DNA of 63,993 bases, filler included. It is 9 parts of 9 records of this genome, joined end to end, with 100 filler letters (N's around TTAATTAATTAA, not from the genome) between each part and the next. Parts side by side here need not be neighbours in the genome. Positions count along the whole stretch, not along the records: positions 30,099 to 38,854 come from SRR7504441_6173; positions 38,955 to 46,674 come from SRR7504441_6174; 7 more parts are not named here. One strand, written 5' to 3'. Positions within the stretch are counted from its first letter, which is position 1. Each line of letters starts with the position of its first letter. Below are positions 13,750 to 46,774 of this stretch, piece by piece. The notes beneath the pieces are model-generated. The model was not told where the DNA came from. It saw only the letters and a list, made by a program, of their open reading frames with translations, and made no database searches. The position numbers and the translations under genes are program-made.

Positions 13750-14938
13750 ATGATGCAGGAAGGAGGTTGGGACGAGGAGTTCGGGTGGCTCGGGCTGCTG
13801 CTGGCCGCCGTCTGCGGGGCGGCGGTGCCGATGCTGCTCCAGCGGGTCCAGCGGTCCGCCGCACCGGCCGGCCGCACTGGCTGTCCGCTTGGGTTCGGCC
13901 CATCAACCAGCAGCGCCCCCCCAACCAGCGGCGCCCCCCCAACCAGCGCCGCCGGCTGTCCGCTCGGATACGGCGCCGCGCCGACGGCGCCGCGGGATGA
14001 GGTGCGGGTGATGGTTCTCACAGGGGCGTCCCGCGGCATCGGGCACAGGCGAACCCCGGGCCGGCCGCGGGGCGAGCGCGTGGCAGCACCGTGAAGCTGT
14101 TCCTGGCGGCGGGCTGGCGGGTAATCACGCTCTCTCGGACGGCGTGGAGCGCGAGCAAGTGCCCGTGGGTGGACGGGGCAACCGATCACGTGGTGGTTGA
14201 CCTGAGCGACCCCGAGAGCACAGCCGAGGCCGTAGCAAAGATCAAACAGCGGCTCGGGCCCGATGGCAAGCTGCACGCCCTGGTGGCTCGGCGGCCGGCC
14301 CGGGCGCCAGCGGGCGAGCAGGTCAACAACGCGGCGGTCTCGCCCAAGGACGGGCGGGGCCAGCGGCTCAACAGCGTCGAAACAGATCCGGCGCTCTGGC
14401 GGCAGGTGGCTGCTCAGGCCAGGCGACAGGTTTAGTCGCGGGCAGGTTTTTGAAGTGAACTTCTTCGCGCCGATCCTGCTGGCCCGAGGGCTGGTGGAAG
14501 AGCTAGAACGGGCCGGCGGCTCGGTGGTCAACGTGACCTCCATCGCTGGGAGCCGGGTGCCACACGTGTGTGTCGGCTCCTGCAGTCGCGGGCTCAGGTG
14601 CATCAGTTCGCGGGGACGGCCTACGCTACCTCCAAGGCGGCGCTCAGCTCGCTCACACGGGAGATGGCGGCTGACCTTGGCCCGCGCGGGATCCGGGTTA
14701 ACTGCATATCTCCCGGGGAGATCCTCACGGGCAGCTTGCACACCTGGTCCGGCCATGAGGCTCGGGGGCAGATATTCTCTCACCGGGCACAGAGGACTTG
14801 GTCAAGCAGACGGTGCCGATGCGACGGCTCGGGACGGTTCTCGAGGTGGCGCACGCGATCTACTTCCTTGTGTCAGAGCAGTCGTCTTACGTCAACGGTG
14901 CCGAGCTGCACATCAATGGAGGCCAGCACGTGTGGTGA
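13750..14938 (+). CDS. Short-chain dehydrogenase/reductase, FixR-like, with N-terminal membrane anchor; 5 introns of 38-41 nt (2 GC-AG)
   Basis: Spliced product contains [43 protein letters not shown] (YxxxK), [12 protein letters not shown] and [17 protein letters not shown]. Confidence 0.9.
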
Positions 14939-15286
14939 TTGCACAATCATGTAGACGGCTTGTTCGTATTACGCATTACGCATTGGGTAATTACAGTTGT
15001 TGCACATGTTTCTCCGTGAACTTTCGTACTCAGACACTTCGTGCTAGCTCCGTAGAATGACGTGTACTAAAGACTGACTGATTTACACAAGTCAGTACGT
15101 ATCACTCAGATACCCGGCGTCAGCTGACCGAACCGTGCGAAGACGTTGCTGCTTGCCTGTTTTGGCAATGAGAACGGCCTGACAGGGAGCACCACAGCGG
15201 CAGCGGTGCGGGCGCCTGCGGAGGCCGATGTGGGACCCGGAGCCGGCGAGTGGGTGAGCTAACCGGCCTCCAGTTGGGGCGGTGCA

Positions 15287-18654: not shown

Positions 18655-21600
18655 TCACGCCTTCTGCTTCTTGGGCGGTGCGACCATCTCAATCGAAACT
18701 TGGTCGTAAGCTTCCATCGGCGGACAGGCACACACAAGGTTCCGATCGCCAAACTCGTCATTAATCCTTGCAGTTGGCCAGAACTTGGCCTGCCTGACCC
18801 AGGGCAGTGGGAAGGCTGCCTGTTCCCGCGAGTACCTGGCCGACCAGTCTCAGAGCCGGCCATGCCAAGCGACTCACGGGTGGTTCCACTCCCCCTGCGT
18901 GATCTTGGTGAGCGAATGCGGGGCGTTCACTAGCGGGTTATCATCTTTAGGCATCAGCCCTTGCTCCACTGCCCGGATCTCCTCCCTGATCGTGAGCAGC
19001 GCGTCAATGTAGCGATCCATCTCGGCTTTGTACTCGCTCTCCGTGGGCTCAATCATCAGCGTGCCCACCGCTGGCCAAGACATGGTGGGTGCGTGCAGCC
19101 CAAAGTCCATCAGCCGCTTGGCAATGTCCTTCTCGGAGATGCCTGTGCTGGTCTTGAGCGGGTTGATGTTCAGGATGAACTCATGCGCGTTCCGCCCGTT
19201 CTCTGCGGTGTACAGCACGGGGAATGCCTCCTTCAGCCGGGCGGCCATGTAGTTGGCGTTGAGCACAGCCACTGCAGTGCCTTGCTTGAGACCAGCCGAC
19301 CCCAGTGTCTTAATGTACATGTACGATATCGGCAGAATGCTTGCAGAGCCCCAAGGCGCGGCCGCAATGGGCCCAAGTGGGTGCTCCCCGCCGGTAGGGA
19401 CCACCTGTCTCAAGCGGTGAGTCGCGGCCATCAGGCCAAACTGACCGGATGCGAAGGCAGGAACGGAGCGAGGTGCGCTGCCACGCCGATCGGCCCGACT
19501 CCTGGCCCGCCTCCGCCATGCGGGATGCAGAAGGTCTTGTGCAAGTTAAGATGGCAAACGTCAGCCCCGATCTCGCCAGGCGAAGTGTACCCGACTTGGG
19601 CGTTCATGTTGGCTCCGTCCATGTAGACCTGCCGCCGGAATGGTCAGGGCTAGCGCGCTCGACGGCTGCCTGTCCGCCGTGCTCGTGGATCTTCTTGCAC
19701 ACCTCGACTACGTGCTCTTCGAACACACCAAACGTGGAAGGGTAGGTGATCATGAGCGCCCCGAGCTGTTCCGAGTACTGCTCGGCCTTGGCGGTGAGGT
19801 CCTCCATATCCACGTATCCCATGCTGTCGCTCTTGACCACTACCACGTCCATACCACACATGGAGGCCGAGGCAGGGTTGGTCCCGTGAGCCGAGGACGG
19901 GATCAGGCACACCTTCCGGTGATCGTTCCCATTGGCACGGTGGTACTCCCGGATAGCCAGCAGCCCAGCGTACTCGCCCTGAGCACCAGAGTTGGGCTGC
20001 AGTGTGATCGCTGGGAAGCCTGCCCACACCAGTCAGCCCGGCACACCTCGGGGATCAACCGGTGATATCGCAGAGGTCGGCCGATAGCTCATCTATCATC
20101 TGCTTGTAGCCCTCAGCCTGGTCCGCCGGGGCGAACGGGTGCATCTTCCCGAACTCGGGCCAGGAGACCGGGAGCATCTCGCAAGTGGCGTTGAGCTTCA
20201 TCGTGCATGAGCCCAGAGGAATCATGGATCGAGTCAGAGAAACGTCCCGATCTGCCAGCTTGCAGATGTATCGTGTCATGGCAGCCTCGCTCTGGTAAGA
20301 CGTGAACACAGGGTTCTGCAGGATGGCCCCCTCGCGCGCGATCCCGGCCGGCAGGCTCAGATCTAGCTCGCTCAGTATCTGCTCGGGGCTGCTCACTGTC
20401 TTGCCATCAGCAAACACTGAGAGCACATCAGCCAGGTGCGCGCTGGTTGTGGTCTCGTCAAAAGAGAGGCCAAGCCCGTCATCGAACTGGCGCATATTGA
20501 ACCCTGCGGCCACGCCGGCCTGCAGCAGTTTCTCCGGCTGGTCGCATCGCACCCTAATAGTGTCGAATATGGCGCCCTGGTCTACTTGGTATCCGAGCTG
20601 CTCAAGACCCGCCCTTACCACACTCGCACAGGCATGCGTCCGGTCCGCAATCCGGCGGAGCCCCTCCGGCCCGTGATAGATGGCGTACATGGAGGCCATA
20701 TTGGCCAGCAGAGCTTGCGCGGTGCACACATTCGAAGTTGCCTTGTCCCTCCTGATGTGCTGCTCTCGAGTCTGGAGAGTGAGTCGGATGCCAGGCAGCC
20801 CGTCCTCGTCCTTGGAGATGCCCATGATCCGACCGGGCATTTTGCGCACGATAGCGTTGCCGCCAGAGACCGCGAAGAAGGCCGCGTGTGGGCCTCCGTA
20901 TCTGGTCACACTATCAAGCACGCATCTACTGCCAGGCCACTTACCCCATTGGGACTCCAAAGCGCTGAGCCGAGCCGAGCGCGATGTCAGCCCCGAAGTG
21001 ACCGGGCGGCTGGATCTTTGTGAGCGCCAACAAGTCTGTGGCGACGACCAGCTTGCACTTGGCTGCCCCTTTATGACCCTAGGCCCAGCAGCTCGCTCGC
21101 ACCGTTGGTTTTGACCTTGGCTGCCAGCCCAGACATATCCTCCAGCCGGCCGTCCGTCGCCGGGTACTGCACCATCGCGCCGCACAGATCGGGCGTGCCC
21201 TCGAAGTCGAAAGAGCTGTGGTCGGCTACGATCACCTGCCAATTGAGGCTCCTCGGCGCCGAGGCATAGAGCCCTACCTCAACTCCTAGTGGCTCAGCGC
21301 GCTGCTTGACCACGGCAATGCTCTGCGGGTGGCAGCTGCTCGAGATGAAGAACTTTTTATTCTGGAGAAGGCTCAGCGGGTCGGGGCCAGGCCGAGCGCC
21401 TTTGGGCTGAGGGAGAGACACATGGACATGGCTTCGGCACTCGCTGTGGCCTGTAACAGATTGAGCGGCCGGCCGGCGGGAGGGCGAGCCTCGTCGAGCA
21501 GGGATGCGTTGGCCAGGTCCATGGCGGTGAGGTCGGCCACCATTGTCTGGTAGTTGAGAAGCGACTCCATGCGGCCTTGCGACACCTCAGCCTGGTAAGG

Positions 21601-22195
21601 CGTGTACGATGTGTACCTGCCCAGCGCGGTCGGCCTGCCCAGGGCCGGTCGATCGCACCAGGACGGGTTCTCCAGGATGTTCCGCAGAATCACGGGCGGC
21701 GTGATAGTGTCGTAGTACCCCATCCCTATGTGTGAGCGCACCATCTGCCCGGGCTTGTCCCGCACGGCCGGGGAGGCTTATCACCCGGTTCTGACCGGCG
21801 ATGGCCTGCAGCTGGGCGAGCGCCTGGGACTCGCTCAGCCCTGGGCCCACTTGCAGCTCCCGGTGGTTCTTGATCGAATCAGGCACCGTGTGCTCGATAA
21901 ATTCATCCAGCGTCTGCCCCCCCCCCCGCTGGTCGACCGGCCCGCGCCCGGCCGGACCTTGTACCCGAGCACCGAGAGCATCTGGCTCACCTCCTGCTCG
22001 GACGGCCCGATGTGCCGTCGGACCAACGAGTCGCTAGGCTGCGGCCAGATTGGTCAGCTCCGGCTGCCCCGGCGCCGCGCGCACCTCGAGCAGAGAACCG
22101 GCCGAGCACAGCCAGCGGGCCGGCTCGAGACGGCGGAGGGCGCGGCAGTGCTTGGCCAGCCGAGCCGGCGGGAACACGCACATCCGAGCCATCAT
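18655..22195 (-). CDS. GLDC: Glycine dehydrogenase (decarboxylating), glycine cleavage P protein; 13 introns of 38-46 nt
   Basis: [80 protein letters not shown] (PLP lysine), [11 protein letters not shown]; Arg-rich N-terminal transit peptide. Confidence 0.97.
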
Positions 22196-31307: not shown

Positions 31308-34191
31308 CTACTTAAACACCTTGTGCTTCTTCTTGGGGCGAATGCTTTTAAGCTGCTCCCCAAAGAACGCCGCGTTGCTGCCCAGCTCAAGCTCCTGCCG
31401 CATGAACTGCATCGCGGCCACATTCTTCCCGACCATCAGCTTGAGCGCCCGCAGTTTGCCCCGGGCCAGCTGCATCAGCTCCTCCAGTTCGTTCAACACG
31501 TCCCGCTGCCCGACCATGATCTGCCGGTGGTGCAGTCGGAGCACAAAGAACAGCGCCTTGCAGCAGAGCTCTACCTGCACCCCCTCCGCCAGCCAGGCCT
31601 TGATATGCTTCAGCAAATACAGCGCGCTCGCAAATGGCAGCAGCAGCAGCGAATGCTCGAGCGCCGCCGCCGAGGTGCCGCTGAGCGTCTTGATCAGATG
31701 GTCAGGCCCGGTCTGGCCCAGCAGGAGGATGTTAGGCTCTGGTATGGTCGGTTCCTCATACGGCTTGCCCAGCGCCTCGGCTGCGTGCTGGGCCGCCTCG
31801 ATTGCTTTCTCGTGGCCTACATGTCGCGCCTCGTCCTCCTCGGCCAGCTCAAGAGCTTCAAACAGCCGCTCACTAGCCATCAGTGTCTCCGAGCTGGTCT
31901 TGGCAGCCGGTGCCGACTCGGCGGCTGGGTCGGTGGCGGCCCCGTCCTTGTCGAGGTTTGCCTCGAACAGCTCTTGCAGCGCGTTCTCACGTTCCTCTTC
32001 GATGAACACCTGGTCGTCTGTCCGCTGCCAGTACCGTATCGAGCGGTCGTTAGACACGGTGAGTGCAAAGTCGCCCACGTGGCTCACAGCCACTCCCCAC
32101 ACCTGCCCCGGCTCACCCACGGGGCTGCCGGCCGGGGGAAGACCTCGGCGTGGTGGGCGGGCATTGCCATGACCATCTCGCGCGAGTCACCGTCCCAATA
32201 CTTGACCATTTTGTCCTTCCCCGTGGAGAAAAAGTAGTGCGATCCAGGTACAAACTTGACCGAGGTGACCGAATCGTCGTGCGCGTGCAGCGACTTGTGC
32301 AGGTCTCCAAAGTCCAGCCCCCACAGCTTAATGCCTGCCCAGGGCGTCAAACCGCCAGGCTCCGGCCGCACTCTTGTCAGCAGAGCCCGTAGCGAGCAAT
32401 GTGCAGTCATCAGACGCGTCGAGCGCGAGCACAGGCAGCTTGTGCCCGTACAGCGAGAGGAAGAACTTGAGCGACTCCTCCAGGAACACTTTGACGGTGC
32501 TGTCCAGCATCGCCACGCACACCAGCCGGCTGTCCCTTGTGAGAGTGACTGCGAGAACTTCGTCCGACATGTTCATCGAGTGAAACGGGACCAGTTCCAG
32601 CCTCTTCTCGGCCCCACCGGCCAGCCCGAGCTTCCAAAACCGCACCACCTGCCCCCGAGCTCGCCGCCGGCCAGGCAGGCCCGGGGTGCCTTGTCGGCGC
32701 CTCCGCTGATCACAGTCTTGCCATCTCGTGAGCAGCAGAGCGTCCAGACGTTCCCGGAGTGGGCCTCCTCGAGCTTGTGTGAGACCGACCCAGCCGCCAC
32801 GTCGCACACAGTGAGCGAGCCGTCCTTGGATCCAACCACCAGGTGGTTGTAGCTCCCCACCACAAACACAGCGCACAGAGCTTGCGGCGTCTCGAGAGTC
32901 TGGACCAGCCGCAGTCCGTCGACAGCCCACACTTTGGCGCCGTCGTTGGCACACGTCACTAGGTGCGAGCTGTCCGACGACAGGGCCAGGGCTCGCACAC
33001 CTGCCCGCACTCGCCGGGGGGCGGGCTGCACGAGCCACCGGAGCGATGACCCATCCGTTCGATTGTGCTCACTCGCTTTCCGGTGTCTTTACTCGTCCTG
33101 TAAACGCAGACCGAGTTGTCGTGCAGCGCCAGCAGCATCTGCGAGCCGTCCGCCCCCCAGCTGAACGACCGGGCCCGGGTCCTAACCGCCACTGTGCACA
33201 CTTTCCCCAACTGCGGCCCCGGCTTGCCCCCAGCCAGCCAGCGACCCGCACCTCGAGGGTCGCAGTCTGCCCGCTTTCTTCCTCAGGAGGGGCCGCCCCA
33301 GCCTCGGCCGCCTTCTTCTTCTGCTGCCGCACCCTCTTGGCTCGCCGCCGGTCCACTTCGTCAGCGGGCCGCACTTTGAACACCTCGACGGCTCTGTCCG
33401 CACCTGCCTACCCTCACCCCCGCCCCCCCCGCAGCCGCACCCAGACAGCCCAGCTCGGCCCCAGTCGCCGGGTGGAACCGGACCATCACCGCTCTGTCGC
33501 GCGACTGTCGGTTCAAGCTGCCTAGAGAGGTTACTCCATCGGGCTGCCCGAGGTTGGTTGTGTCGTACAGTCTGAGCTCGCTGTCGTCGGAGCCTGTGGC
33601 CAGCCGAGTGCCGGCTGGGTTCACATCCAGAGTCCAGACCGGGTGCCGGTGCCCAACCACGGTCTGCACACAGTGCTGGGCCTCGAGGTTCCACACTTTG
33701 AGCAGACAGTCTTTGCTGCCCGAGACCAGCTGCCCACGCACGAACGCCAAATCGGTCACCCCGTCCTTGTGCCCCTTCAGCCGGTAAAGCCCGGCCTCGG
33801 CCACCACGTCCCACACGATGATGTCCGTGTCCTTGCCGCCCGACCCGAGCAGCGCGCCCGAGCTGTTGTAGCGCAGCGCAGTCACAGCCGACCGATGCCC
33901 GTGAAGCACCACCCCGGCCGACCCGTCCAGCCCCCAGGTGCGCACCGACCCGTCGCCGTGCCCGGCCGCCAGCTGGGCGGTCCCGGTGCAGAGCGCCAGC
34001 CGGGTCACTTCGGATTTGCTCCCGGCCAGCCTGTGGGCCGGGGTGGCCTTCTTCAAATCCCAAAGCACCACGTCCTCAAGCGCTGGGGTGGCCAGCAGGT
34101 TGGTGGAAGGGTCCCAGCAGGCATTCGAACCCGGCGAGCTGATCAGCCCGCCCGTCTGCTTGAGCTCGTAGCGAAGGTAAGACTTCACCAT
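31308..34191 (-). CDS. WDR3: U3 snoRNP WD40 protein UTP12/DIP2/WDR3
   Basis: Starts MVKSYLRY; WD40 repeats; LKFFLSLYGHKLPV, IKLWGLDFGDLHKSLHAH; Utp12 C-terminal domain LLLLPF. Confidence 0.95.
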
Positions 34192-34264
34192 CCGCGCGCC
34201 AAGTCGGCGTGGCGGCCGGCGTAAATGCCGTTGGAGTCGGTGCGGGCTGCGGGGGGACCCTGAG

Positions 34265-36025
34265 ATGGAGGCTCGGTGGCTGGCACTCGTGCTGGCCGCG
34301 CTGGTGGGCGGGTCACTGCTGGCGCTGGAGCTGCGGTCAGAGCCGGCCGAGTCCCGGTGGCGCGGCAGCCTGACCAGCCAGGCCGAGCAGAGCCAGAAGG
34401 CGGCCACTGACACGGCCCTCCGACGGCTGGGCGAGGCGCTTGCCGGGCACACCAGGGCACGGTCTGCCGGTGTGCGGGCTGTGGAGCAGAAGCAGGCGGC
34501 AGCCTTAGACAGAGCGGCCAGAGCGGAGGCGGACAGGGCGGTTAAGGAGGCGGAGCTGAAGGTTAAGGACGCGGCGAGCGGCGCCAAGCTGCAGGCGGAT
34601 ACGGCGGTGGTGGCGGCCCAGCTGCGGGCGGATACGGAGGTGACCAGGGTCAAGCTGCAGGCGGACACGGAGGTAGCGGCGGCCCTGCTGCGAGTGAGGC
34701 GGCTCGAGTCGCGGAATGCGGAGCTGGAGGCGGAGCTGAAGAAGCTACAGCAGATGTCGCAGCCAGCACGGTCGCCTGGGGAAGATGAACCGACCAGCCC
34801 CGGGCGGCCGAGCCAGCTGCGGCATACGCTCTGGCTTTATTTCAATATGCAGGTGTCGCGGCGGGTGAGGAGAAACGTGTGGGATCTAGGGTGCTGCGAT
34901 GAGGTGGCTATTGCTCCCATTCTGAGAGCAGTATACGACAAGTTATACATTGTCGCCCGCACCACAAAGGCTGGACCTCTGAGGGGCAGATTCCCTGCGA
35001 GGACCTTGATCGATGTCGGCGCCAATGACGGGCAGGAGGCCACTGCGCTCCTCAGTGCTTTCCACACAACACACACGGCCGCCATGTGCTACGGCGTCCG
35101 GCACAGCGGCGTGGGCGAGCCAGTGTTCCGTGTGATCTCGTTCGAGCCATCGGTGGCACTACAGGCCAGAGCTCCCACGGTGTGAGGATGAAGCAGATAT
35201 ATCCGAACGAATCCATCAACTGCGCGATGGGCTTGATCCACATCCCGACTTCAAAGATGACAAACGTGATTCTCTGCGCCTCGAGCAGCTGGCTCGCACC
35301 CTGGAGAACGTTGAAGTCACCACCCTCGGCGTCCACCTTGAGGCAAAAGATATCGTCCAATGTCCGGACGCACCTAGGGTGCTGGTGCTCGCATGGCAAC
35401 TTGCTGCTGCCCGTTTTGAGGCCTATGTCGCTATAAGCATTATCGAGTGTGAAAGAGAGGACGTTGACGGCTGTTGGCTGGCCGGTCGATGGCTTACACC
35501 TCTGAGACGACTCAAACACTTGCTCAAACATCTTGGAGCTGGCCCTACCAGGCGCCCCGCCAGCTTTTATGCTGCCTCCCTCATTGCCGACGTCGCTGAA
35601 TTGCACTTCCACTTCGACATTTGACAGCGCGATCTGAAAAGCATAAAATGTGGGGGCAGTCAGATTCCTCTGCTCGGCCAAAGCTCTCAGCCTGCAGAAT
35701 ACAGTCGGGCCGCAACGCTTCGACATCCCGCCCGACGTGGTGGTATCCCCACCTGGACAACATTGAGGATGCGAGTGGCCCAGCCGTGCTAGGAACGTCC
35801 GAGGGCAACCTTAAGATAACATGGTGGGGCAACGGCATCTGCGGCATACGAGGCAGCACGTCTTTGGAGATCTTCTGGCGGATGTATCACAGCACCAGCG
35901 AGGAGGTTCGCCGAGGCTTCCTCGAGCCCTACGATAACACGCCGTACAACCGGAGCGAGATAGATGCAGTATTCGAGGCCAAGGGGCACAAACTGCACTT
36001 AGCGGATGCATTTCACTTGTTATGA
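34265..36025 (+). CDS. Membrane-anchored FkbM-family (Methyltransf_21) methyltransferase; segment ~35153-35708 is coded on the minus strand
   Basis: Plus strand: TM, coiled coil, IDVGANDG, VISFEPS. Minus segment: PTVFCRL...IALSN...TLDN...LKVDAEGGDFNVLQGA...FVIFE...GYICF...LWPV. Plus strand resumes: WWYPHLD...WWGNGICG. Confidence 0.85.
34586..34684 (+). repeat. 33-bp (11-aa, hendecad) tandem repeat x3 in coiled-coil stalk
   Basis: KLQADTAVVAA / QLRADTEVTRV / KLQADTEVAAA. Confidence 0.8.
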
Positions 36026-36285
36026 CATTGTCATGAACCAGAACAATCATTATGATTAAGTTTGCGATGTAGACAGATGTAAATATCTAGATCTACGAGC
36101 AATCATCTGTCTACAACTGTCATGACAGCTGTCTACTGATCATGATCAAGTGATCAGTCAGGAAGCCTCATCAATCGACTCAACCTCGAACCTCGAGCTA
36201 TCATTATCTAGTCCGCTGCTGAGAGCCTCGCCGGCTCGGTAAGACTGCGTCCGTTACTCGTATTGGCGCCACCCGCCCGAGAGCG

Positions 36286-38800
36286 ATGCCACGCAAGCGG
36301 CCAATCAGCGAGGAGGGGCCGGCGGCCGAGCCGGTGGAGGAGGATGACGAGGAGGAGGACGAGCTGGTGGACGTGGAGCCGGATGAGGAGGACGAGCTCG
36401 GGGTGGCCAGCGAGGAGGAGGACGAGGAGGTGGACGAGCACGACAGCCTGGACGACGAAGAGCCCGAGGATGAGGGGCAGCGGGCGGAGTCGGCGGACGA
36501 CGACTCGTCCGACGACGAGACAATGGTCAACACGGTGGGCAACATCCCGATGCGGTGGTACGAGCACGAGGACCACATTGGGTACGACCGGGAGGGCCAG
36601 AAGATAGGCCGCCCGGCCACCGCCGACCAGATCCAGGACTTTGTGAACAAGAGCGACGACCCCGAGTACTGGCGCTCGGTGTTTGACGAGCTCAACCAGA
36701 AGCGGGTGGTGCTCTCCGACGAGGAGCTCAAGACCATCGCCCGGATCCGGGCCGGCGGGTTTGCGCACTCGGATAAGTTCGATCCGTTCGTCATGCCGGC
36801 CACCATGGTTGTCGACCCGCAGGATATGGCCATGCCGCTCTCGGGGGCGCCCAAGCCCAAGTCCAGCTTCATACCGTCAAAGTGGGAGGCGGCGCGCGTG
36901 AGGAAGATGGTCAAAGCGATCCGCGAGGCGCCCCGGTCGGCGCCGCCCGGCTGACATGGGGCAGGGCCGGTTTACCAAGCGGGCGGTGCCGCAGGAGCCG
37001 GCGCGCAACTACTTGATTTGGGACGATGATATGAGCGATCACCGGACGCGACGGGGCGGTGCAGCGCTGCTCCAGAAGCAGCATATCCCTGCGCCTAAGC
37101 CAGTGCTGCCTGGACACGGTGAGTCTTACAACCCGGCCGACGAGTACTTGCCCACCGAGGAGGAGCGGACTGAGTGGTCTGGCGGCGGGCCGGCCCTGTG
37201 TGAGCTGTTGGCAGGGAGAACTTGGACCCGGATGAGCGGGAGGCCAATTGGCTGCCAACAAAGTTTGGCTCGCTCCGGCACGTTCCTGCATACAACAACT
37301 TCATCCGCGAGGCGTTCAACCGGTTAATCCCTGGCTTGCTGTAGCTGCTGACTCGCCGGCAGCTGTCTGGACCTCTATCTTTGCCCTCGGGTGCGCAGGA
37401 TGCGTCACAACATCAGCTCGGATGCACTCATCCCCAAACTTCCAAACCCGCGCGAGCTCGAACCTTTCCCCAAGGCGCTCCAACTGCTGTTCAACGGACA
37501 CACCGGCAGGATCCGGTGGGTCGGCTTAGCGCGGTCCTGCTGAGTGGCCGAGCAGGTCGCTTTCTTTCGAGCCATCGGGCGAGTATTTGGTGAGTGCTAG
37601 CGATGACCACACCGTGCGGGTTTGGGAGGTGGACACTGGCCGGTGCGTATCGCGGATCGATCTGCCGGACGACATGACCGCCACGCTGGTGGCGTGGTGC
37701 CCAGCGCGGGGGCTGCCGTTGGTGCTGGCGGCTGTGGGGAGTGACGTGTGGCTGCTCGATCCGGGCACTGGCGGCCGCGAGGCCACAGGAACTCTGCCTG
37801 GGTCCGACGTGCCGCCCGAGTCCGAGGAAGTGGCCTCGTGGTCCAAGCCGCCGTCCCAGTTGGCCGGCTCGGTACGCCTGTTTGGACTAGCTGGCGCGAG
37901 CCGTATGACAGGTATCTTCACTGCGGTATGTGCTTAAGATGGCAGCGCCAGTCAAGCACCTGTCGTGGCACAGCAAGGGCGACTACTTTTGCACAGTCAC
38001 TCCAGACGCGGCCGGTCTGGGCTGATTGATGCTGCTGGGCTGAATCCGGGCCAGGCAAACCTGTAGTGGTGCACCAGCTTTCGAAACGGAAGAGCAGGGT
38101 GGTATCATCTAACCACATTTGAGCAGCATCTAACCGGGCCATCTCAGGTGCTCAAGAAGTCCAAGGGCTCCAAGGTCCAGCGGGCGCTCTTCCACCCGAC
38201 CAAGCCGTACTTCTACATAGCCACCCAACAGTATGTGCGGGTGTACAATTTACTTAAGATGGAGCTCAAACAGAAGCTCATGCCCGGTGTCCGTTACATA
38301 TCTAGCATAGCCGTCCACCCCGGCGGCGACAACGTGCTGGTTGGAAGCTACGACCGGTCCGGCTGGCCTGCGGCTGGTGCACCCTGAGCGAGCGGGCAGC
38401 CGGGTGGTGTGGCTGGATACTGAGCTGTCCACGCGGCCGTTCAAGATCCTTAGAAATCACACCGAGGCCGTGCGACAGGTTCGGATCAGACAATCAGCAG
38501 GCCGGCAGCTGAGCACTTTGGCAGGTGGCATACCACCGCAAGTACCCGTTGTTCGCCTCGGGTGCGGACGACTGTCTAGTGCACGTGTTCCATGGGATGG
38601 TTTACAACGACTTCCAAGTGAGCAATCGTGCTGGCTGGCGCTGATCATGCTGGCAGAACCCTTTGCTGGTGCCTGTGAAGATCCTGCGCGGGCACAACAA
38701 AAACGGCGACTTGGGGATCCTGGACCTGCAGTGGCACCCGACCCAACCTTGGCTATGCACTGCTGGCGCTGATCACACACTCAGATTGTTTGTGCCGTGA
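36286..38800 (+). CDS. BOP1: Ribosome biogenesis protein BOP1/ERB1
   Basis: Acidic N-terminus, [53 protein letters not shown]40 repeats ending LRLFVP*; many ~40-nt introns. Confidence 0.96.
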
Positions 38801-38823
38801 TCATAATGTTACGTGCACGGCGC

Positions 38824-38854
38824 CAGCTGCTGGCTAGCTGCTGGCTAGCTGCTG
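38824..38854 (+). repeat. 11-bp tandem repeat (AGCTGCTGGCT) about x3 at contig end
   Basis: Seen directly in the sequence. Confidence 0.75.
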
Positions 38855-38954
38855 NNNNNNNNNNNNNNNNNNNNNNNNNNNNNNNNNNNNNNNNNNNNTT
38901 AATTAATTAANNNNNNNNNNNNNNNNNNNNNNNNNNNNNNNNNNNNNNNNNNNN

Positions 38955-39368
38955 GCACCAGCGGAGGGCGAGGCGGAGGCGGTAACGGAGGGCGAGGCAG
39001 AGGCGGTAGCGGAGCCGGGAACGGAGCAGCCCGGAACGGCCACTTCGCCGACGGGTCAGCCCTGCCCGAAGCCGCTCCCGCTGCCAACGGTCTCGTACCA
39101 GGAAGCCAAGCAACTGAACTCGCTCCGGGCCGAGGCCGCCCGTTACAAGAGGCTAGCAGGTGAGCTACAGGCCGAGCTGAGGGCCGGGAGGGAACAGCCC
39201 GGGGAGTGGAAGCTGCTGGCGGAGGTGGGTCGGCTGGAGCAGTGCGTCGAGCAGCAGAACCAGCTGATCCAGGTGTTGAGCGCTGAGCTGGCCGCGCAGT
39301 TGGCGCTGGGAAAGTCGTCGGGCGACTGCCACGCGGAGCTGGTTGAGCTGATGAAAAGCTACCACTAG
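38955..39368 (+). CDS. Coiled-coil protein C-terminus (5' partial)
   Basis: Open frame from the contig start to TAG; EGEAEAV repeat then heptad-rich sequence. Confidence 0.55.
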   Translation, partial: APAEGEAEAVTEGEAEAVAEPGTEQPGTATSPTGQPCPKPLPLPTVSYQEAKQLNSLRAEAARYKRLAGELQAELRAGREQPGEWKLLAEVGRLEQCVEQQNQLIQVLSAELAAQLALGKSSGDCHAELVELMKSYH

Positions 39369-39493
39369 CCAGCCGTCAGTGTGTTAAATTTAATGCGGCT
39401 ATTAATTCAGTGTAGGCTTATAGTTTGAATCTCGAGTGCCGCTCAAGATACTTGCACGTAGCCCGACGGGCTCTGTCTCAGCTCCGTAGTAGC

Positions 39494-40599
39494 TCAGTAG
39501 ATGTTGGTCTTGGCCTGGCTGACTTGGCTGGTGTCCAGCTGGGGCGGTGTATCGCACTGGCCGATCTTTGTCCCGGCCAGCAGCACAAACCCCAGCTCCT
39601 GGTCCACCACCCTCATCTCAAAGTGAGCGCTGTAAGCCCCGAGCACCACACCCGCCTGCTCGGCCTTGATCCCAGACAGCGCGATCGCCCCGCCCGCCCT
39701 GCGGCTGGTTACTAAATATAGCCGGGGCAGCCCGCCTGGTCGCGTAACGGAACTCGGGCTCCAAGTTAATAATAGGCTCAGGCAAGATGTTGCACAGCAC
39801 TATGTCGTAACCGTCCGCAGGCCGCTCAGGCTGATCTAAAAATAGACAGAGCTCAGCCCCGCCGGCGGGCCGGGCACCGCTGTTGTGGCAGAAGCGCGCG
39901 TGGTTGGATAAATTGTTCATCGCAGCGTTCTGTCTGGATACTAGCACCGCCTCCCGACTCAACTCCACTCCGAGCACACTCCTCGGGCCGCCCTTGAGAC
40001 GAGCCGCGGCCAGCAGCCCGAGCAGCCCGGAGCCCGATCCGAAGTCGAGCACCCGCGCCCCCGGCCGGCCCAGCTGCCCGGCCAGCCAGCGGCAGCAGAG
40101 CCGGGAGGAGGCGTGGTCATTGAGCCCGAACACCCCTGAGAGCGGCCCCTGGAGCATCAGCTCGGTGCCCGGCGCCGTAACCCACAGCCCCTCCGGCCGC
40201 AGCGCGCTGGCCCGCCAGTCGGCCCTCATAGCCTCCATCGCCTCCCGCTGCCACTCCTCCATCGGCGTCGGCCCGTCCAGCAGACCCCTGCCCCCTCAAT
40301 CGCCCCGACCCAGGGCGGGCGGGCTGCCGGGCCGCGTCGCCCGGGAAGAGCGCGTGGATGGTCTCGCCCCCCCAGCCGGCCAGCCCGTCTACCGGCTGGG
40401 CCACGGCTGCGGCCCCCAGCCGGTGCAGCCAGCTCTCGACCAAGGCCCGGTGGGGGCCGGCGGGGAGGGCCAGCTTGCGGTATACGGCAGGGGGCGGGGC
40501 CTGGCGCTGGCGGTGCACGGTGAGCATGATCAGCCCCAGCCAGAACAGCGCCCAGCACAGCATGCCGGCCGAGCCCCAGTCGTCATCCAGCGGCCACAT
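39494..40599 (-). CDS. PrmA-like class I SAM-dependent protein methyltransferase with N-terminal TM segment
   Basis: VFGLNDHASSRLC, VLDFGSGSGLLGL, YDIVLCNIL, IALSGI. Confidence 0.8.
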
Positions 40600-40717
40600 C
40601 GGGTGAGCTGCAAGCCGGGGGGTCGTTATCGAGAGAAAAGAAAAAAAGACATTGCCCTGTTGGGAAGACAGGCTGCAGGGTGGCGCCAGCAGGGCGTGAC
40701 CTTGGCACACGGCGGGC

Positions 40718-41407
40718 ATGTGGTGGGCGCTGAGCCTGTTGGGCGGGCTGGCGGCGGCTTTGGACCCGAACAGTCTGACCGACGCCAACGACCGGGCGTA
40801 CAACCTGCCGGGATCCTCCTACTTCCGGCCGCTCTGGTTCTACGACTTCGCCCAGTCTTCAGGCATCTGGTATCAGAACCAGTACCAGGTGTATGCCGAC
40901 CGGGCCACCGGCCTGGGGGGGGCGGTCCCGCTCAGCCCAGCCAACGGAGCCCTCACGCTGACGGAGTACAGCGCCAGCCAGACGGTGCACCAGAACGCGG
41001 TGTTTAGAGTGTATCCCCAGGACTTGTTGGTCAACGGAACCGGCGACAACATCCGAGTGAGGATGAAGATCAAGCTGGGCTCGACCAGAACCGATAGCAC
41101 CGCCGGCTCGGGGCTCGGGGTGTACTATATGCGTCGGAGTGAGTACGATGAACTCAATGTGGGGGGCCAAGCATTCAACTGGCATTCACGCTGCGAGGCC
41201 AACAAGCCCCAGTACGGGCTTGGGGTTTGCCTAAGGACCCGTCGGGATACCGAGGCCACTGCCGTGAACGGCTTCTCCATCCGACTGTCCACCTCCCAAA
41301 CAGAATACAACGACTACGAGCAAAACCCGACAAGTCAGCAACTCCGGAGCATGGCACACCACAAACCTACGCTCATCGCCTATCATTCAGGGATGGGACA
41401 TTCATGA
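40718..41407 (+). CDS. Secreted beta-rich hypothetical protein (3' end uncertain, possibly truncated)
   Basis: Signal peptide MWWALSLLGGLAAA; 229-codon ORF. Confidence 0.55.
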   Translation: MWWALSLLGGLAAALDPNSLTDANDRAYNLPGSSYFRPLWFYDFAQSSGIWYQNQYQVYADRATGLGGAVPLSPANGALTLTEYSASQTVHQNAVFRVYPQDLLVNGTGDNIRVRMKIKLGSTRTDSTAGSGLGVYYMRRSEYDELNVGGQAFNWHSRCEANKPQYGLGVCLRTRRDTEATAVNGFSIRLSTSQTEYNDYEQNPTSQQLRSMAHHKPTLIAYHSGMGHS

Positions 41408-41426
41408 AGTGCCAGCAGCACCATGG

Positions 41427-44400
41427 TTATGTTGGATCCCTTGCCGTCAGAAGATTTACTTCAATACGGTGGTCAGAGAAGCCCACCTCTTCCATCACAA
41501 GTTTATGCCTGCGAGTAGCTGTATTGTTCCAGGCCTCTACTCCAAGAGGCTGATTGATGTTCAGCATAAACTCCTTGACTCGATGTATGTGCATGTAATC
41601 GCCATTATAATGCGCCATGTCGGGATCTGCCATAGTCACCTTGAACCACTCGGTCTGGAACCTCTCCAGGGACTCATCGTTTATCAAAGAACTCTCTAAG
41701 TTTGAACAAAATGTGAAGTTGTCTAAAATCACAGCAACGAAGAGATTGAGCACAGCAAATACTCCTACAATGTAGAAGGAGATAAAATAGATTCCAGCAA
41801 CCTGCCAGCCAGGTCCGATTTAGTTCCAACCCCGGGTTATACTGGGCACCCAAGGCCTGCCACAATCGTCTGGAAGCCAATAGTTGCCCGACAGATCACC
41901 ATCAAAAGTGGTTTCGTACGGTGTACAGTCAGGCCACTGTACTTGACAGTCCTTCATTACAACATTCCAGTTTTCGCCTGTCAAGCACCGGACAAGTAGC
42001 AGCATCGAAGAACCAAAATTACGAAAGTTGTTGTGTGATGAGAGCGCGTCCCCAAACTTTACATTAGCAAACATTTGCATCCCAATCACAGAGTAAATGA
42101 ATAGGACCATGAACAGCAAGCTCCCAATGTTAAACATGGCTGGAAGAGAGACAGCTAGGGTCGTGACCATCATACGAATCCCCTTGGCTCGACGAATCAT
42201 GCGGAAGATCAGCAGCAGGCGTATTGGCCTGAGCGCCTGAAGTGGTATCCCAACACCATCTAAGAAAAAGAGGGCAACGCAGCCATAGATAATGAAAAAG
42301 TCGAACAGGTTCCATGCTAATGTGAAGTATCTGCGGAGTCCTTGGGCAACAATTCGCATATGGAGCTCAACAAAGAAGATGCATGCAAACGCAAAGTTGG
42401 CAAGCCTCATCATCTCTTCCCAGTCGCTTGTTTGAGCACAGTACTCCAGCGTCATCACCGCAGTATTGAGAATCAAGAGTGTCAGCACTGTCTGCTCAAA
42501 CCACTCAGCATTTGTCAACTTGAACATCATCTTTCGAATGTAGTTCTCTGGCTCATTGACAGGCGGTTCAACTACCTGAGTAGCTAGCGACAGCACCATG
42601 TCCTTAAAATTCTTCTGTTCGTCGGTGAGCATGCCTGCAACACGAAACTACTGAGCATCAAGCTAATATCAGGCTGAACCTCGACCCGACATCTGGTTGA
42701 ACTTTTCGATGATCACACCAACCACCATGTTCAAAATGAAGAATGCACAAACAAAAATCTGCAGTACAAAGAACATGGCCGCTATTGGGTTGTTGTCCTT
42801 CACTGGTTGGTTGTCCACTCCATTCATGTCGACGGCAGAATACATCACGTCAGTCCATCCCTCAAGAGAGGAAACCTCGAATAAACAAAGCATTCCATCG
42901 AAGACGTTGTCAAAGCTGTAACCAGGATTGGCCCATACAGCAGGAATCAAAATTCTGCCCCCCATGGCTTGTGTGCCATCCCAGCAGCAATTCTCACCCA
43001 GCGTCACTTTCAGCCAGACCGAGGCAGCTGTCACGCCCAGAGGCTTCGTCGTTGTTGCAAGAGTAAAACTGGCCCATGAAGAACCCCATTCCCATGACAG
43101 AAAACAAGAAGAAGAAGAAGACTGACAAGAACATCACATTCATAATAGCGGGCATTGAGCGCCACAAAGCTCCAAAGATCAATTGAATCTTTTCGTTCTT
43201 GGTTGCCATTCGCAGAGGCCGGATGGTCCTGTATTTAATTAGTTGCAGCAGAAGCTAGCGCTGCGCACCGTAGTGTACGAAGCGCCCTACCAATTCCTCC
43301 AGGAAGGAATGCCAGCAGCAGTGTTGTGTAAGAGATTATGATCACCATGAAATCAAGCCGGTTGAAAGCATCACCGAGATAAGCCGTGCGTGGCCCGTAG
43401 AATCCATAGGCAATTACCCTCATGATGAACTCTAATGTGAAGATGCCAAGCATCACGGGATCCACAATCATCAAGATTTCTGTGATCAGCTTTGATGGCT
43501 GCCATGGCGTGTCCACTGCGAGTGCGAAGTCTGCTCAAGGCGCTATCAAAACGAGCATGGTCACCGCTGTAAACATTTCAAGAAGTATATAGTTGGAGAA
43601 GACAAAGAAAGTGAGCATGAAGAAGAAAGACATGACAAGGTCAAGACCCTCCCTGTGCTCTGTTGGGCAAGCCGGTTCTCCAATCACTCCATTCTCTAAA
43701 TCTGGTGTGGGAAAGCACCGCAGGGTATTGTACATAATATCAGTCCAGTCTTCACCGGTCATAATTTGGAACAGCGTCAGAAGGGAGATCAGGAAGTTGT
43801 CAAAGTTGGCCCTTGGCACTTCACCATCTCCATCAAACAATCGCAAAGAGAAGAGCGAAGTGCCAAAAATTCCAAAGATGACCATGGCAAACATAATGAA
43901 AACAATCAAATTCGCAATTGAAGCCATTGAGCTGATCACTGTGTCAATCAAATCTTGCATCTGCCGAAGCAGCCTGAACATTCTGAAGAGCTTGAACACA
44001 CGAAGCATCGACAGATTGAATGCTGCTCCACCACCAGAAAAAAATCCAATCACCGTTGGGAGTGAGGAGGCAACCAGAATGAAGTCAAAGCAATTTGAAA
44101 AGTTGCCAAAATACCACTTAAGTCCCCCGTACCCACACCACTTTGCAAGCATCTCAAGCACAAAGATGATGGCAAAGATAGCCTCCCCTGTCTTGAGCAT
44201 CTCAATATATCCATCCGACATTCCATGATACTCCATGGCCATAAAGATGATATTCCCCATGATTGCTATGTTGAAGGAGGACGAGTCTGTGCCAGAGATC
44301 ACGGCTGTTGGTGTGCCCTCCACGTCTGCAGCCAGCTTGGGCAAGGGCAGTGGCAGCTCTGCTGAAATGCGGCACAACAGCACGGTGAGTAGCAGCGCTG

Positions 44401-46264
44401 TTACAGGTAACATGAGTGTTTTTCAGGTGCCAGCATCATCCTTTCTAGAAGAGGCAAAAGCAGCAATGGCATCTGAGCAGACTGACGAATTGCACATGAG
44501 TCCCGAGGAGATGGAGAAGATGATGGGCCCTACCATGGCTGTGGTCGTTCCCAAACGCCGAGCAGTCAACATCCGCTCTGTGGCTGCAACCCCTTCGAAA
44601 TATACTGACCACTTCATAAACGAACATCTGGATGGTGAGACAGCAGAGATGTTTCGAGAAAGAAAGCTAGAAGACGGCTGGGGCGAGTGTGCAATATGGC
44701 TGTGGTACCGTAGAGACCCGGAGCCTGATCCAGATTACCCTAATGTGCTGTCAGACCCGATTCTGTTTGACACAGCAATCGGCCGAATGGTGGCGTCGAC
44801 CACATTTGATACATTCCTTGCGAGCGGATTAAGCTCTATCACCTTTGCTCCAGGATCCGTGTTCATGTACCCGCTGAGCTGCTCCTGACTGGTTGCAATC
44901 TCGCGCATAGAAGCCAGCTCATCATCAGGAGGCTGGTCCTCTTTGCTCGCAACCTCGGCTGATGACTGCGATGCCCCCCCGAGTCCCGTCAGCGCCTTGA
45001 CTGCCAGATTCTGCGTGAACACGTTTGGACCGACTCTGTGCTGCGCAGAATTGAGCAGATTCTGCACAGTGAGGGTCCTCCTGCTGCGCATTTCCTCGAG
45101 GGCCTTATCCCTGTCTACTTGCTTGCGCTGCTGCTGGAAGGCAATTGTGATCACAGCGCAGTACAAGTTGATCACAAAGTAGGTGAATGTGAGCACAATT
45201 ATCACCATGTACATCCACGAAGGCTCAGACTCGGCATCCTGCAGCACGTACATCACACCTGTCCAGCCCTCCAGCGTTGACGCTTGAAAGATAGTCAGCG
45301 CAGCGATCGCGAGGTTGTCAAACGAGGTCCAGCCATCGTTTGGATTCTCACCAATCACACATGCAAACCCGCGCGGGCAGGTGAACGCAGCAGTCCCATG
45401 AGCCTTGGCCCGAGTATACAGGTCGGCATCGCACCACCTCTCGGGTTCCATTGCCTCGTCGCTTCCGTCGAGCGACAGGCACTGCTGCTTCATCTTGCAC
45501 TTGAAGATCTGGACGCCCATAATACCAAACAGCATCAACAGGAAGACCGTGAGCGTCACCACGTCCACAAACATGGGCAGCGCCCTGACCAGAGCATCGA
45601 GGATCGCGGCGCAGTACGTGAGGAATTTGATGGCCCTCAGTGCACGGAGTGCCCTGAACGCGCGGAACGGCTTGAGATTAGGCACGCCGGGCATCTCGAA
45701 GAACAAGAGCCAGCAGGCGACCACCACCACAAAGTCTAGCACATTGGCCCCGTTCTGCAAATAGGCGCCCTTCCCGAACATAAAGCCGTTGGCCAGGATG
45801 AGCAACAGCATCTCAACAGTGAACACGCAGTTGGTGGCCAAATCCATCTGATCCAGGATCTTGTAGCCCTGGCTCTTCTCCGGGAACCAGACCGGCGAGC
45901 TCATGGCCATCACCACCGTGCTCCACACAATCACCAGCATAATAAACCCTTCCCAGGCCGCGTTATTCACCAGCCCGATAGCCAACGCCCGGACCCGGTT
46001 GTCGGGCCCAATGCAGAAGAGCGCATTCCCGTGGTCCAGGCAATATTCCTCCTCGGGCTCGGCCGCGAACATGTCCACCGTCGGGGCCACTGCTTGCATC
46101 CCGAGCTGATCTACGAACGGTCGGCAGGCGCCCGGCGGGGGGCCGGGGGGCTCCGGGGGCTCGGGGGGCGCCGGGCTGAGAATGGGGGCGCTGCTGGCGT
46201 CGGAGGCCGAGTGCTCGTCCGAGGAGCCCCCCCCGAGCGGCTCCAGCTGCACCTCCTCGGGCAT
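41427..46264 (-). CDS. Four-domain voltage-gated Ca2+ channel alpha subunit (EEEE filter); segment ~44277-44815 is coded on the plus strand; II-III linker missing
   Basis: Pore loops TLEGW, TGEDW, SLEGW, TGENW; S4 helices RAFRALRALR, RVFKLFRMFR, RALRTLRTIRPLR, RPIRLLLIFRMIRR; IVS6 LNLFVAVILDNF followed by an EF-hand-like segment. Confidence 0.92.
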
Positions 46265-46774
46265 CGGCTAGCCCCTGCTGCGCCCCCCCCCTGCAGCACG
46301 CTGCTGATGAGATTCTTGGGAAACTTCGCCAAAAGGAAGTGCACTGACCCGTCTGTGCCTTGGGAGCGCTCCTGGGGGATGCAAGCCGGCCGGGGGGGCG
46401 CGGGATGCAAGCCGGCGCCGTCGGGGGTGGTGGACTCGTCCTGGCCCCCGCTGGACCCGCACAAGCAGCCGCCCACCCACCACGCATCATCGCCAGCGCT
46501 CGAGTCGTCGATCGCTCCGCCGGCGGTGCTGCACACCGGCCGCCTCGGGGCTGACCGGCCGCAGCTGGCGGAGGAAGCGCCGGGCGTGGACCTGTGCTCG
46601 GCGCCGGAGTCGCCCGAGGAGGAGCAGCTGCACACGGCGCTCCGGGCGGCCAGGGTGCCGCCCCCCCCCCCCCCNNNNNNNNNNNNNNNNNNNNNNNNNN
46701 NNNNNNNNNNNNNNNNNNTTAATTAATTAANNNNNNNNNNNNNNNNNNNNNNNNNNNNNNNNNNNNNNNNNNNN

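Follow-up and report, generated by a model that had tools for sequence, protein, structure and literature searches.

Do two genes of an apparent protist, each carrying an internal segment of about half a kilobase on the wrong strand, reveal a gene-scrambling or inversion system, or do they reveal something about the data? The question is raised by a stretch of 63,993 bases (the window), which comprises nine separate contigs of 3.1-12.0 kb each, with 56-63% G+C, held together by linkers of the form N44-TTAATTAATTAA-N44. The genes in question are a FkbM-type methyltransferase (gene A) on contig 4 (30099-38854) and a four-domain voltage-gated cation channel (gene B) on contig 5 (38955-46674). An earlier note on this DNA had described inversions in these two unrelated genes on separate contigs and had proposed from them a recurrent intragenic rearrangement process, with a technical or in-silico origin as its hedge. 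If a protist really did invert gene segments precisely and without repeats, this would be a new kind of genome rearrangement. Both inversions were located where the note had placed them, by tblastn and by restored reading frames, and are real letters of the window; they most likely do not reflect the organism's own DNA, and a data artefact is the favoured explanation, as the note's hedge had allowed, given a colinear joint in an independent sample.

Gene B occupies 41430-46267 on the - strand and was recognised by four Ion_trans repeats and by small GT..AG introns, the Pfam family being placed on open reading frames (ORFs) at 44738-46267, 43538-44422, 42672-43133, 41823-42647, 41430-41819 and 43268-43534. 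The coding sequence switches to the + strand between domains I and II, and it is here that inverted segment B lies (44275-44817, +; 543 bp, or 545 bp counting the 1-nt complementary flank). The segment encodes the linker joining these domains and the first part of the domain II S1 helix, on the strand opposite to the rest of the gene. Un-inverting 44275-44817, with an ambiguity of 1 nt, reduced the in-frame stops from two to none and gave a 910-codon frame that spans domain I, domain II and the 180-residue linker between them. The boundary used for this segment was taken from an independent contig and not from fitting to the window itself.

That contig came from an alignment to contig 5 of Logan contigs from four public sequencing runs (X1 to X4), of which X3 and X4 gave nothing usable on contig 5. 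Record 9 of X2, an independent aquatic metagenome, is 261 nt long at a depth of 2.2 and has one mismatch overall: its letters 1-142 equal the - strand of 44818-44959 with no mismatches, and its letters 143-261 equal the + strand of 44275-44393 with one. The record thereby joins 44818 directly to 44275 on opposite strands, which is the colinear order of gene B. Colinear genes in independent assemblies were what the earlier note had named as refuting its proposal, and such a gene order was found for one of the two genes. The second joint of segment B lies outside X2 record 9 and, when restored, reads as a normal S1 helix ('...TTFDTFLNIAIMGNIIFMAMEYH'). Independent contigs lying within segments were approximately 97-100% identical to the window (X1 records 1, 3 and 4; X2 records 6, 10 and 11), and four independent contigs reach the breakpoints of contig 5, none of which follows the window across.

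The note had also reported that other genes show missing internal blocks, and this held for the channel gene, the one gene examined, in which a block is missing between 43525 and 43526. The break is blunt, with the end of domain II S6 abutting the end of domain III S1. X2 record 8 (581 nt) matches 43319-43525 without mismatches and then continues with 374 letters unlike the window, the first 30 of which, translated by hand on the - strand, read RTILCQISSV in frame with the window's ALAVDTPW and form a typical S1 end. In the window this place is occupied instead by the end of domain II S6 with a stop in frame, a TGA 10 nt upstream of the break, and the Ion_trans profile of domain III starts at position 19, as against positions 2-10 in the other three domains. 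The window thus lacks the II-III linker and most of domain III S1; relative to X2, at least 374 nt are missing from inside the gene as a blunt deletion.

Further discontinuities were found at the 3' side of gene B (41352-41477). X2 record 7 leaves the window at 41477, with no mismatches in its matched part, and X1 record 2 matches only 41352-41467, again with no mismatches and with loose ends on both sides. The C-terminal region of the channel ends early, at a stop at 41427-41429, and also looks disrupted. Three loose-end 30-mers (behind 43525 in X2, and before 41352 and behind 41467 in X1) were absent from the remainder of the window, the 18-letter loose end before 41477 lying outside this search, and the missing block has therefore not been moved to another place within the nine contigs. 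Contig 5 should be treated as a mosaic from approximately 41.35 kb onward.

Gene A (34265-36025, +) was identified as a member of the FkbM-type methyltransferases (Methyltransf_21) by Pfam, tblastn and its restored frame. It has a long N-terminal part of coiled or low-complexity character, whose + strand ORF starts at 34265, whilst Pfam places the C-terminal part of Methyltransf_21 on a piece of the - strand. This piece belongs to inverted segment A (35153-35708, -; 556 bp, with boundaries to ±5 nt), which encodes approximately residues 297-481 of gene A. An exhaustive HMMER search with the - strand piece returned 50 matches, the best being P0001 (404 aa) and P0002 (460 aa) at approximately 50% identity, and six of the 50 (P0001-5 and P0007) were compared with the window by tblastn, the other 44, including the 171-aa P0006, being left out. 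All six homologs begin on the + strand, where the match ends at 35065-35170, and continue on the - strand, running from 35708-35753 to 34992-35160; five of the six return to the + strand from 35717-35738 to 35893-36022, P0004 having no third match. At the first joint, P0002 reads FSFEPS followed directly by PMVFCRL; in the window, FEPS ends at 35152 on the + strand and PTVFCRL starts at 35708 on the - strand.

Un-inverting 35153-35708 reduced the in-frame stops of gene A from 12 to none, giving a 586-codon frame that aligns with residues 53-460 of P0002 in a single local alignment (score 969) spanning the two joints. Scores against P0001 and P0002 added up to 1780 for the restored frame versus 569 for the unflipped N-terminal ORF. 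Neighbouring boundary pairs scored 1777-1798, and the ends of segment A are consequently fixed only to about ±5 nt, with a size of 556-566 bp. Reading frame alone does not fix these boundaries, as it leaves 4581 boundary pairs open in DNA of this high G+C.

The two segments agree in size with the range of about 540-556 bp given in the earlier note, and its description of the flips as lossless and nearly blunt was borne out. Each segment abuts its flanks without a spacer, and the frames are recovered by flipping alone, without added letters, so that each flip consists of two reciprocal junctions at which nothing is lost, exactly for segment B and to ±5 nt for segment A. Complementarity at the flanks is 0 nt for segment A and 1 nt for segment B, pointer-like direct repeats at the restored joints measure 0 and 0 nt (A) and 0 and 1 nt (B), and there are no small indels at the joints of either segment. 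No exact 8-nt inverted repeat lies within 40 nt of both ends of either segment, and among the inverted-repeat pairs listed (the 25 longest of 43 and of 54) none has an arm at each boundary. By eye, the breakpoints share no obvious motif.

Further cases were sought in all nine contigs with a strand scan based on codon usage, trained on 15 long ORFs from which the flipped pieces were excluded. Only two gene-internal flips of approximately 0.5 kb emerged, a - strand run at 35229-35679 between + runs and a + strand run at 44445-44805 between - runs, and the remaining flips were just one to four scan windows long. Two candidates for a third flip were rejected. The + strand run at 40755-41295 is a separate ORF between two - strand genes, with a methionine and hydrophobic start of its own, and a + strand ORF within glycine dehydrogenase (19550-20062) has no PDB match and is a spurious antisense ORF, of the long kind that the antisense strands of GC-rich genes here yield. 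In the same glycine dehydrogenase gene (GcvP) the expected residues are encoded on the - strand, in two frames with small introns between them, and residues 11-956 of the 957 of E. coli GcvP are colinear with the - strand from 22035 to 18706. The Pfam pieces of the WDR3/Utp12 gene are likewise in order, and BOP1, read by eye, is colinear throughout. As the note had stated, no recombinase gene is visible: no recombinase, transposase or integrase family was found by Pfam in 184 of the 187 ORFs of at least 120 aa, with 63 kb of the genome covered and three overlapping ORFs (33526-34221, 35029-35433 and 35136-35621) left out. The scrambling or inversion system itself is thus not supported, as neither inverted repeats nor pointers were found at the joints, and neither a recombinase family nor further cases in the window.

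Lossless reciprocal joints can arise in just two ways, by a true two-break inversion or by computational reverse-complementing of a slice. The artefact reading, to which a high likelihood is assigned, is preferred because the independent sample has both the colinear gene B joint and the missing block, because the flips break conserved genes whose homologs are colinear proteins, because no inverted repeats or pointers were found at the joints and no recombinase family in the window, and because the flip in gene B co-occurs with the blunt deletion of domain III S1. Under this reading, a slice of approximately 550 bp would have been cut out, reverse-complemented and pasted back inside an otherwise ordinary gene when the data were produced or handled, either during assembly post-processing or through an edit, simulated or accidental. 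A single non-biological origin would then account for the flips and the deletion alike, and the flip in gene A would have the same origin as that in gene B. The source is probably computational rather than a wet-lab chimera, since reciprocal blunt junctions do not fit the chimeras of multiple displacement amplification (MDA).

Inversions made by cutting, reverse-complementing and pasting are produced by structural-variant simulators or by strand-handling bugs. The flips in the window resemble such simulated inversions in their exact, reciprocal and blunt joints with neither gain nor loss (exact for B, to ±5 nt for A), the lack of any end signal, their similar sizes and a placement blind to genes and codons, as well as in their occurrence together with a blunt deletion and their absence from the independent sample; they differ in that there is no direct proof of such a step for this window. 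Graph assemblers flip segments only between inverted repeats at least as long as the assembler word, whereas the flips seen here have no inverted repeats at both ends. Overall, the flips behave like simulated inversions and lack those defining features that were tested for invertons, ciliate scrambling, MDA chimeras and repeat-mediated misassembly; the earlier note, too, had found that none of ciliate pointers, invertons and MDA chimeras fits well. The practical consequence is that gene models, protein predictions and evolutionary inferences based on these contigs would be wrong, because the contigs contain blunt flips, and at least one blunt deletion, not shared by the independent sample.

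Several observations weigh against the artefact reading. Independent support from the same species is available at only one of the four inversion joints, through one Logan contig at a depth of 2.2, and contigs show presence and not absence, such that the flipped form could also exist in X2. The occurrence of both orientations across samples is also what would be expected of a real invertible or polymorphic segment, and a mechanism could underlie the similar sizes (543 and approximately 556 bp). For gene A, neither the word search nor the Joint Genome Institute (JGI) scan yielded independent sequence from the same species: the word-based homolog search with its segment gave no match, and so no same-species protein for comparison, and in the JGI metagenome scan with that segment none of 145 pattern matches was confirmed. 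No public run contains half of the words of the window, and no RNA run is listed as a holder.

Among the alternatives to a data artefact, the best to survive is real but unprogrammed structural variation, in which a strain would carry two small, end-joined, two-break inversions and a deletion, leaving pseudogenes, and the populations in X2 would be intact. A true inversion gives reciprocal junctions, the window and X2 do differ in the orientation of segment B, and end joining is able to leave blunt ends with 0-1 nt of homology. However, this explanation requires two precise flips of approximately 550 bp in conserved coding sequence within 16 kb, in addition to at least one blunt deletion in the channel gene, a density that, as a judgement from general knowledge, is far above the ordinary rate of small inversions. 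The joints also lack small indels, and the neighbouring genes GcvP, WDR3 and BOP1 are intact and colinear, and structural variation is considered unlikely.

Wet-lab chimeras, for example from single-cell MDA, that were threaded into contigs by the assembler are regarded as quite improbable. In Lasken and Stockwell 2007 (PMC1855051), 85% of 475 MDA chimeras were inverted, and the form A'C consists of a single joint with an intervening deletion, usually with 2-21 bp of complementarity. The tendency of MDA to join nearby segments mostly in inverted orientation favours this explanation, and the window resembles the chimeras described for amplified environmental DNA in joining, in inverted orientation, segments that lie within 10 kb of each other (PMC1855051); contig 5 additionally has several direct breakpoints relative to the independent contigs. 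For each flip, nevertheless, amplification would have had to produce a pair of exactly reciprocal, lossless joints with complementarity of just 0-1 nt, whereas MDA joints are, in the same source, single, with an intervening deletion, and have at least 2 bp of complementarity in 76.8% of cases (PMC1855051). The window joints are unlike these in being reciprocal, lossless and blunt, although their complementarities of 0 and 1 nt come from two events only and are to that extent a weak contrast.

That a marine protist flips gene segments of approximately 550 bp by a precise, repeat-independent cut-and-rejoin process, with both orientations occurring in nature, is held to be very unlikely. Such a repeat- and pointer-free intragenic inversion in a eukaryote is undescribed in the literature searched on MDA chimeras, invertons and scrambled genes.

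A programmed rearrangement, either ciliate-like scrambling or an inverton-like switch, with the window representing the scrambled or OFF version and X2 the assembled or ON version, is judged highly improbable. It could draw on the two similar-sized cases in unrelated genes, on the presence of segment B in both orientations in public data, and on the block missing from the channel gene, which might conceivably be located in another part of the genome. Invertons, the intragenic type included, have at their two ends a pair of inverted repeats recognised by site-specific recombinases (bioRxiv 10.1101/2023.03.11.532203). Bacterial intragenic invertons, as portrayed there, share with the window an inversion inside coding sequence that recodes or truncates the protein, and their orientations can coexist; segment B is flipped in the window and colinear in X2, these being separate data sets in which contigs cannot show a mixture. 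The window flips differ from invertons in having no inverted repeats, no recombinase family in the window and a eukaryotic host with introns of spliceosomal type. Ciliate scrambled segments carry pointers of at least 2 bp, each found in two copies in the germline, and eliminated sequences lie between the segments (eLife 2022, PMC9797194). The scrambled genes of spirotrich ciliates are like the window in having segments inverted in one genome version and colinear in another (PMC9797194), whereas the window is unlike them in its pointer-like repeats of 0, 0, 0 and 1 nt, the lack of a spacer, the 56-63% G+C and the standard stops. Against any programmed system stand the joints without pointers, spacer (internal eliminated sequence) or inverted repeats, the lack of a recombinase family in the window and of a third case in the nine contigs, the absence of the missing block from the rest of the window and the lack of an obvious breakpoint motif.

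The weakest alternative, that there is no inversion and that the pieces on the opposite strand are small genes in their own right or antisense ORFs arising by chance in GC-rich DNA, gains something from the commonness of spurious antisense ORFs here (such as 19550-20062 in GcvP) and from the 4581 open boundary combinations of gene A, but was rejected as barely credible, since the - strand piece of gene A is the middle and C-terminal domain of its family in register with all six homologs, and the ends of segment B fit exactly, completing both the reading frame of the channel and its domain II S1 helix, with a colinear X2 contig.

With regard to the source of the DNA, the window appears eukaryotic in style, in the manner of a marine protist, with genes densely packed on both strands and small GT..AG introns, which measure approximately 35-60 nt in the glycine dehydrogenase and channel genes; it also reads well with standard stops. 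In a search of public sequencing runs, seawater and other aquatic metagenomes matched the window partially. For positions 35001-45000, the share of words found was 0.10 in X1 and 0.08 in X2. Contig 4 may be absent from the X1 and X2 samples, because these shares are about what the contigs on contig 5 alone would give, and by the same estimate of our own contigs 4 and 5 need not share an organism. Word-based searches with the channel linker, against longer proteins and against proteins of near length, gave no match, and a JGI scan with channel domain II returned 412 relatives, the 80 loci retained all being at most 36% identical, with no same-species locus among them.

Some minor observations concern contig 5. 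G+C falls from approximately 0.58-0.61 at 38-42 kb to 0.47-0.54 across the channel gene (bins at 42-48 kb), close to the discontinuity at 41352, and the drop at approximately 41.4 kb suggests that contig 5 may join DNA of two origins. The + strand ORF at 40700-41407 lies between PrmA and the channel gene and comprises 235 codons without a Pfam family; it has an internal methionine followed by a hydrophobic stretch resembling a signal peptide, and its last 55 nt lie beyond a point of X1 divergence. Behind 43235, in the small intron of domain III S4, an X1 contig contains two additional letters, TA, which is probably ordinary strain variation. Elsewhere in the window, two overlapping + strand ORFs in different frames at 14236-15057 both match short-chain dehydrogenase profiles (overlapping positions 103-152 and 139-191), an arrangement that could be due to an intron, a frameshift or another edit. 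Very short GT..AG introns of approximately 35-60 nt were observed within 18706-22035 (-) and at 43230-43270.

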